The notes under the pieces were generated by a model. That model ran no database searches. It was not told the DNA's origin and saw only the letters and a program-made list of their open reading frames with translations. Positions 46,354 through 47,693 of a stretch of 64,000 nt of DNA are shown here, piece by piece; positions within the stretch are counted from its first letter, which is position 1; the number at the start of each line of letters is the position of its first letter. Position numbers and translations under genes: made by a program. The DNA is from Shigella phage Sf25: the sequence record MF327009. One strand, written 5' to 3'.

Positions 46354-47133
46354 TTAATTAAAAATATATACTTCATCAGTTCCATTCTTTTCTTTGGAAT
46401 GATATATGTTAAAGACGTATTTTTTATTAAGATGCTTAACATTATATTTTTTAGACCATTCTTTAAGAAGAGTGTTTTCCTTTCCGTGATGCTCTAAAAC
46501 ATTCGACAGTCCAAATTTTATTCCTCTGTCATTTAAAGAATCTAAAAGATTTAAAAGGTCTTTTTCTTCTTCTTCTGACCAAAATTTATTATAATCAGCA
46601 ACTGTTATAAGATATGGAGGGTCCACATATACAAAATCGCCATCTAGAATTTTGACATCTTTAAAATGCAATGAACTAAAGATTATTTTATCACAATTTT
46701 GTTTAAAGTGATTAAAGCGTTTTTCACTATTTTTGTTTATAGTTCTTTTTCCAAACGGAGTAGTAAAATTTCCTTTATCGTTTATACGAATCATATTACT
46801 AAACCCGTGAAAATGAAGAACATAAAGTAAAAGAGGATCTCTAGTTTTATTATAATCTTCACGTAATTTCAAAAACTCTTCTTTTGATGTTTTTGATAGT
46901 TTATATTGCTTTATTACTTTTAATACGTCATCCCATGATACATTAATAAGACGCTTATACATTTCAATAATTGGTTCTTGAATATCATTGGCCAATACAG
47001 GACCATTGACGTTCAAAGACACTGATAAACCTCCACAAAATAAATCCACGAATCTGTCATATTTTGGAAAATGAGGCTTAAGTTCAGGTAATAATGACTG
47101 TTTATTACCTGTATACGCGATAGCTCCTAGCAT
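46354..47133 (-). CDS. dam: DNA adenine methyltransferase Dam
   Basis: 259 aa; catalytic DPPY motif and FCGG SAM-binding region. Confidence 0.88.
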
Positions 47134-47693
47134 TATATTCTCTCATTTATTGCAGCAAAAAACGAATTATATAATTCTTCATCATATGTATTTGATAGTA
47201 ATACTAACACGTTTTGTGATTTAGCATATTCATTAAACCTTGCTTGGATAGTTGGATTATTAGTAAATGATTCTCTTTTTGTCCATTTATTACGTGGATA
47301 ATATCCGCATGGCAAAAAATCTAATATCATCAATGACACAGGGTTTTCAGTTTTTGTGTATTCTTTTAATTTCTCTTTATCTTCTAAATATATTCCAACC
47401 GAATCAATAGCTGTACCTCCACCAACTTGGTGTTTGATTTCAATTATATGCTTTTTACCGTTGCGAGAAATAACAATATCAAATCTTCTAGTACGCTTCT
47501 TAGTTATAAAATTAGAGCAAAACAAATTATTTGATTTTTCAGTATCATCAATTAAAACCATTTTTTCTTGATAACTAACTGAACAATCAGTGAAATATTC
47601 TTTTACTTTATTAAGTATGAAATTTTCAACTACGGCAGATATTTTATATGAATCTCCGTTTAAAGCCATTTCATGCACAATTTTATTAATCAT
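47133..47693 (-). CDS. Hypothetical protein with PD-(D/E)xK-like signature, translationally coupled to dam
   Basis: Probable start MINKIVHE (186 aa, GAGGA RBS); motif [21 protein letters not shown]; stop overlaps dam ATG. Confidence 0.5.

Follow-up and report, generated by a model that had tools for sequence, protein, structure and literature searches.

Shigella phage Sf25 (sequence record MF327009), of which we analysed a stretch of 64,000 nucleotides (hereafter, the window), carries directly upstream of its dam gene an open reading frame (ORF) predicted to encode a restriction-endonuclease-like protein. We propose, with a probability of about 60%, that this nuclease gene and dam form an orthodox type II restriction-modification cassette carried by the phage, with GATC as its presumed recognition site. 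The proposal draws directly on the fold of the nuclease, its invariant catalytic residues, its linkage to and co-divergence with Dam, the three allelic states found at the locus, and the lesions carried by phages T4 and T2. From these we infer that the protein is an active nuclease, that it recognises GATC, that N6-methyladenine (m6A) blocks it, and which DNA it attacks in nature. A first-pass annotation of the window had already likened the pair to a restriction-modification or modification-dependent nuclease module, and the fold, the catalytic residues, and the constant linkage to Dam all support that reading.

The ORF lies on the minus strand and is intact from its ATG at position 47693 to its TAA at 47135-47133, encoding a protein that begins MINKIV; its extent and its 186 codons are as first annotated. 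The overlap that had been noted between its stop and the dam start is also present, as the TAA and the dam ATG (47133-47131) have one base in common within the junction sequence AATATAATGCTAGG. As far as can be read from this arrangement, it is a case of translational coupling of dam to the nuclease gene. The downstream gene, rightly called dam, encodes a genuine Dam, matching the Pfam MethyltransfD12 and TIGR00571 models, with 100% protein identity to T2 Dam. Over the nuclease/dam region, the window shares 99.9% identity with the Tequatrovirus Shigella phage Sf24, which bears out the T-even assignment, and the nuclease is identical to Sf24 gp159, labelled "hypothetical protein" in that record.

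Conservation rules out a chance reading frame. The ORF matches phrog_8706, a family of unknown function, from end to end (7e-116), it is found at full length in 148 phage records, and its homologues, at 63, 59, 55, 49, 44, 34, and 31% identity, keep the motif described below. As judged from sequence searches, the family appears to be tiny and restricted to T4-like phages. When 1.8 billion cluster representatives were searched exhaustively with HMMER, only 12 proteins came up, all of them members of the phage family or spurious repeat proteins, and none of the known restriction-enzyme families was reached; no bacterial or archaeal homologue was found in 185,579 genomes scanned (one genome per species), and a scan of IMG/VR added only one locus, which was near-identical. 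With these few members, the nuclease stands for a new and very narrow family of restriction-endonuclease-like sequences. Database labels read "hypothetical", except for the GenBank record of phage Shinka ("putative restriction endonuclease") and a CATH 3.40.1350.10 note in the Sf24 record. Our literature searches found no paper describing the gene, and its sequence was already publicly available in 1988 with the T2 dam entry (M22342.1), in which the ORF is unannotated.

The encoded protein is predicted to have a PD-(D/E)xK fold with conserved putative catalytic residues. An AlphaFold2 model built from eight family members (mean predicted local distance difference test score, pLDDT, 80.7; predicted template-modelling score, pTM, 0.79) contains the alpha-beta-beta-beta-alpha-beta core with its secondary structure in the canonical order, and the independent BFVD predicted structure of the phage MX01 homologue superposes on it with a TM score of 0.91. 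When the model was compared with known structures, the closest relatives were type IIP restriction enzymes; further matches in this comparison were Can2, VC1899, McrC, BstEII, DrdV, Bax1, PfoI, BsaWI, PspGI, BsoBI, Bse634I, NgoMIV, AgeI, and Cfr10I. With Foldseek, too, the top of the list held only PD-(D/E)xK nucleases. In the model, the first long helix carries E23, strand 2 carries D72, and strand 3 carries E85-x-K87, and these four residues are invariant in an alignment of eight sequences reaching down to 31% identity, as are H88, Q89, G93-T-A-I-D-S98, and D125. The first-pass annotation had started from a D...E-x-K spacing in a peptide that corresponds to residues 69-89 (D72, E85, and K87, as D-x12-E-x-K), and it had set structural similarity to PD-(D/E)xK nucleases as the test of its proposal. 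Structure prediction and comparison reveal this similarity, and the motif falls inside the conserved core of the alignment.

By sequence, neither the single protein nor the family profile gave a useful match in the PDB, and NCBIfam held no relevant match for the ORF. The signals from profile libraries were all below threshold and came mainly from restriction-enzyme or other PD-(D/E)xK models (among them BanI, HSDR_N, PDDEXK_11, and PADLOC REase_II, the last at 5.3e-6), with a few from unrelated ones. Because DpnII cuts the same site that Dam methylates, we pursued the comparison with its family, the GATC-specific PF04556. Four of nine nuclease family members match this profile and the other five do not, and the scores (15.7 bits for the window protein and 22.5 bits for the best member, P0009) do not reach the gathering threshold of 23. 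For a family-to-family comparison, a DpnII query fragment 100% identical to the NCBI DpnII entry was used to retrieve 1,543 PF04556 proteins, of which 27 were aligned.

The likeness to DpnII is suggestive, though short of decisive. The partner methylase of DpnII and MboI is of the same D12/Dam class, and the weak profile match puts the catalytic core in register, with E23 opposite the glutamate of MEN, RRFD72IVI opposite KRFDFVI, IE85IK opposite IEVN, and GGGTA opposite SGGSK. However, only positions ~137-222 of the 288 in the DpnII profile align, the phage protein has no counterpart of the N-terminal ~135, and where the DpnII family has ExN and a downstream SK, the phage protein has its lysine in a canonical ExK. 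The gene order differs as well, as methylases come first in the dpnII operon, whereas the phage cassette runs from nuclease to methylase. Because homology is marginal and below threshold, the N-terminal region is lacking, and the ExK differs, we do not place the nuclease in the DpnII family. Its fold is closest in kind to that of MunI, an EcoRI-like type IIP enzyme that cuts C/AATTG, yet the two share 12% identity and no relationship was detected at the level of sequence; MunI is bacterial, has another methylase as its partner, and presumably differs from the phage nuclease in its recognition sequence. The size of the phage protein and the MunI-like fold of its model are consistent with a homodimeric type IIP enzyme.

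The linkage to Dam is the strongest of our results. A Dam-family methylase gene lies directly downstream of the nuclease gene, or overlaps it, in 10 of 10 contexts, which comprise the window, T2, Klebsiella phage KPV15, and seven metagenomic relatives, that is, every homologue context available. The methylase starts 0-13 nt past the nuclease stop or overlaps the nuclease gene by 1-35 nt, and close-set or overlapping junctions occur in KPV15 (7 nt) and at the genes for P0011 (35 nt), P0013 (20 nt), P0009 (4 nt), P0002, P0003, and P0005 (1 nt each), and P0006 (0 nt). The pair is found at no fewer than three genome positions. In Tequatrovirus it separates gene 61 from gene 56; in KPV15, a Jiaodavirus, it occupies the rIIB-topoisomerase region, and genes 56 and 61 adjoin each other without an intervening dam; and in locus L011, rIIA is its neighbour. 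Nuclease identities to the window of 63, 55, 44, 35, and 36% go together with methylase identities of 71, 72, 62, 54, and 52%, respectively. The two proteins co-diverge, and their linkage is obligatory.

Three allelic states occur among the Tequatrovirus records that we surveyed. The full-length nuclease gene is present in the 148 records mentioned above, and nuclease together with dam in 149, the extra one being M22342.1; dam with only the last 88 nt of the nuclease gene is found in about 33 records, T4 included; and neither gene is found in about 340, such as PP01, RB27, Shfl2, and wV7. No record in this survey has the nuclease without the methylase, and in 148 of the ~181 that carry dam, this gene is not solitary but the second cistron behind the nuclease gene. 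In PP01, gene 56 adjoins gene 61, and the cassette appears against it as a clean ~1.42-kb indel that is AT-richer than its surroundings (GC 27.3% and 28.5%, versus 35.0% for the window).

The lesions affect the nuclease gene. In T4, a 536-bp deletion between ATCA microhomologies (window ~47221-47756) removes the promoter, the ribosome-binding site, and codons 1-158. In T2, one T has been lost from a run of six, and the resulting frameshift swaps the last seven residues of the nuclease, which is 181 aa long there (L001, 2507-3052) and stops 13 nt ahead of dam; the run of six in the window (GTTTTTTGC, 47150-47160) is five Ts long in T2 and in SV76, and the remnant in T4 is also of the five-T form. 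Further truncated copies are present in G29 and Bas37. A methylase that is dispensable or capable of standing alone, a nuclease that never does so, joint movement of the two, and loss of the nuclease first make up the pattern expected of a restriction-modification module. The "orphan" Dam of T4 is the product of the same methylase gene at the same locus (the PADLOC orphan-methyltransferase model matches dam at 1.6e-183), differing from the cassette version in that it is preceded by the 88-nt 3′ remnant that the deletion left behind, and, from a comparison of the sequences, it looks like the survivor of a two-gene restriction-modification cassette.

The insertion of the pair between conserved genes, with its presence/absence polymorphism, and the AT-richness of the cassette would also fit a free-standing homing-type or selfish site-specific endonuclease. 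Like seg and mob genes in T4, it would cleave relatives that lack the cassette close to the 56/61 junction and propagate itself through recombinational repair, taking dam along as a passenger. Such an element has no reason to keep a fixed neighbour, yet Dam has been retained at three or more insertion sites while diverging together with the nuclease down to ~35% identity. Moreover, the nearest structural relatives are type IIP restriction enzymes, and the known T-even homing endonucleases are annotated as GIY-YIG or HNH proteins, whereas the fold here is PD-(D/E)xK. We therefore consider homing rather improbable.

Two further observations concern the boundaries of the cassette. At its ends (window 46348-46364 and 47757-47773) there are similar AT-rich decamers, TTTAATTAAT and TTAAATTAAT on the minus strand; these could be imperfect direct repeats marking where the insertion begins and ends, or they may match by chance in AT-rich DNA. 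In locus L009 (4010-4291), immediately upstream of the gene for P0002 (63% identity), there is a 93-aa fragment corresponding to the C-terminal half of a gene-56-like NTP pyrophosphohydrolase (phrog_4856, 9.1e-40), possibly a scar left when recombination brought in the cassette.

If the restriction-modification reading is right, the cassette would be a self-contained unit of two genes, expressed early from its own promoter, with the nuclease translated first and dam translationally coupled to it. The nuclease would be a small, probably homodimeric type II PD-(D/E)xK enzyme of the EcoRI/MunI-like class. T2/T4 Dam is a GATC methylase and is annotated as such, and it is the partner alone that suggests a GATC specificity for the nuclease. 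Dam would methylate GATC, the nuclease would presumably cut unmethylated GATC in DNA without this mark, and the phage's own DNA would be shielded by Dam methylation on top of its glucosyl-hydroxymethylcytosine. Likely targets would be under-methylated DNA in the same cell, and one may speculate about co-infecting or superinfecting phages, or about plasmids or prophages that outpace the host Dam; it is equally a matter of speculation that Dam could be needed for nascent or incompletely glucosylated phage DNA. The cassette may also act as a selfish module, and its decay would take the course usual for restriction-modification systems, in which the nuclease gene goes first and a solitary methylase stays.

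Several points weigh against this proposal. Enterobacterial hosts are themselves Dam+, so their DNA should resist an m6A-blocked GATC enzyme, and a useful target is therefore hard to name. The order of nuclease before methylase is less common in systems that must establish themselves in a naive cell. The comparison with DpnII is marginal, as hhalign of the nuclease family against the 27 PF04556 proteins gave a score of 23.2 (P 0.018) that 2 of 300 column-shuffled controls equalled, and any two PD-(D/E)xK families might score at this level. Genes for dCMP hydroxymethylase and glucosyltransferase are present in the cassette carriers, and glucosyl-hydroxymethylcytosine DNA by itself stops most type II enzymes (PMC7653180). 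Because the DNA of the carriers is already hypermodified, the need for self-protection by Dam is unproven. Lastly, GATC is by far the most depleted palindromic tetramer in the window (81 sites versus 211 expected; observed/expected 0.38), but we dropped this as evidence for the cassette, given that the ratio is 0.31 in the cassette-less PP01, 0.31 in the dam-only T4, and 0.11 in KPV15. PP01 and T4 are equally depleted, and the depletion is lineage-wide and independent of cassette state, giving the proposal no specific support. It fits the GATC avoidance long reported for enterobacterial phages.

In T2-type phages, an active GATC enzyme could also cut hydroxymethylcytosine DNA that lacks Dam methylation, in which case the cassette would be a weapon and selfish element among co-infecting T-even phages, destroying or converting dam-less relatives and under-methylated rivals. 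We think this unlikely; if true, it would account for the presence of Dam in T-even phages and would contribute to the strong GATC depletion seen across the family (observed/expected 0.1-0.4). A DpnI-like, modification-dependent nuclease would instead cut Dam-methylated GATC in ordinary cytosine DNA, such as the host chromosome or co-resident DNA, while the phage escapes through its glucosyl-hydroxymethylcytosine, and Dam would complete the methylation of hemi-methylated or unmethylated sites, generating more substrate. Dam+ hosts would then be an obvious and abundant target, better than any that we can offer for an orthodox system, and all identified carriers are hydroxymethylcytosine phages with their own protection. 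The early promoter-like site would also gain a purpose in host shut-off, and the linkage to dam is accounted for equally well. Nevertheless, this possibility seems quite unlikely to us, as the nuclease has no m6A-reader (winged-helix) domain, it does not resemble DpnI and does not have DpnI as its closest structure, and obligatory linkage would be needless where the host already supplies the methylase.

A role outside restriction may be considered too. The protein might nick hemi-methylated GATC as MutH does, in the course of phage replication, recombination, or repair, or it might serve Dam as a regulator that binds DNA or as a cofactor. The other known biological use of GATC methylation is in Dam-directed strand discrimination, and GATC is strongly depleted in these genomes, but neither sequence nor structure lends support to such a role, the nuclease having no match of either kind to MutH in the MutH/Sau3AI family. 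We regard it as very improbable.

Compared with other systems, the nuclease-dam pair would be of the standard type II restriction-modification kind, and there are precedents for such systems in viruses, for instance R.CviAI/M.CviAI (GATC) in chloroviruses and EcoP1I in phage P1. As proposed here, in both of these, the virus carries a nuclease together with the adenine methylase cognate to it; methylation marks the viral genome, while the other DNA in the cell is attacked. In contrast to the hosts of the cassette, which are Dam+, those of chloroviruses are unmethylated at the site, so that host DNA is the target, whereas P1 differs in being temperate and in having a type III system. We found no sequence relationship of the phage nuclease to CviAI or EcoP1I, and only weak BFVD matches to unnamed viral proteins. 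It is the context, a classical T-even phage with a textbook "orphan" methylase and T4 as a deletion derivative, that adds interest.

The coordinates of the cassette and its signals are collected in Table 1. The promoter-like site lies just upstream of the nuclease gene, resembles T4 early promoters, and falls within the segment deleted from T4. Together with it, the terminator-like hairpin would make promoter, nuclease gene, and dam a transcription unit of their own; the promoter and terminator calls are consensus matches only and no proof of function.

Table 1. Features of the nuclease-dam cassette in the window (positions in the 64,000-nucleotide stretch).
Feature	Position	Strand	Details
Nuclease gene, PD-(D/E)xK restriction-endonuclease-like, 186 aa, phrog_8706	47133..47693	-	Putative catalytic residues E23, D72, E85, K87
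dam, 259-aa D12-class N6-adenine methyltransferase, second cistron	46354..47133	-	PF02086 (MethyltransfD12) 6.5e-51; TIGR00571 1.4e-69
TAATG junction, one-base overlap of nuclease stop and dam start	47131..47135	-	Direct sequence reading
Shine-Dalgarno GAGG, 8 nt upstream of nuclease ATG	47702..47705	-	Direct sequence reading
Sigma-70-type promoter-like site, TTTACT-17-TATTAT with upstream TG	47719..47747	-	Consensus scan, pattern match only
Terminator-like hairpin followed by T run, between gene 61 and cassette	47799..47824	-	Pattern match only
Accessory cassette (promoter, nuclease gene, dam), ~1.42 kb	46354..47773	-	Three-way alignment of window, PP01, and T4

Both neighbours of the cassette deserve comment. 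On one side, gene 56 (dCTPase, minus strand) contains a perfect 244-nt tandem duplication (45699-45942 and 45943-46186), and because 244 is not a multiple of 3, the gene is broken up into two ORFs that overlap (45531-46016 and 45940-46308). In Sf24, the closest record, gene 56 is intact at 519 nt. The duplication may be an assembly artefact, or it may be real and probably deleterious, near the T4 oriA region. On the other side, between the cassette and gene 61, the plus strand carries a 66-aa hydrophobic ORF (47787-47987) with a strong AAGGAGG ribosome-binding site and a 4-nt overlap with gene 61 at the 3′ end of that gene. The Sf24 record lists the ORF as a predicted membrane protein, and its match among the PHROGs is phrog_2024 (1.4e-31). 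Small ORFs that agree with it in size, strand, and position recur beside gene 61 in KPV15, L008, L009, and L016, and the stretch is kept in PP01 and T4, so we assign this ORF to gene 61 and not to the cassette.

The Dam proteins of T2 and T4, usually called solitary phage enzymes, belong to the best-studied DNA methyltransferases. To our knowledge, their only established benefit is guarding non-glucosylated mutants from P1 restriction. Our data indicate instead that, in the usual natural state of the Tequatrovirus dam locus, Dam is encoded by the second of two genes in an operon, behind a restriction-enzyme-like nuclease, and that laboratory T4 has arisen from this state by deletion. On our reading, the series of cassette states shows cleanly how, in nature, a restriction-modification system can decay until an orphan methylase is left, and the question of why T-even phages carry Dam becomes directly testable. 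If our proposal is true, a restriction-modification system would join the accessory genes of virulent, hypermodified phages.
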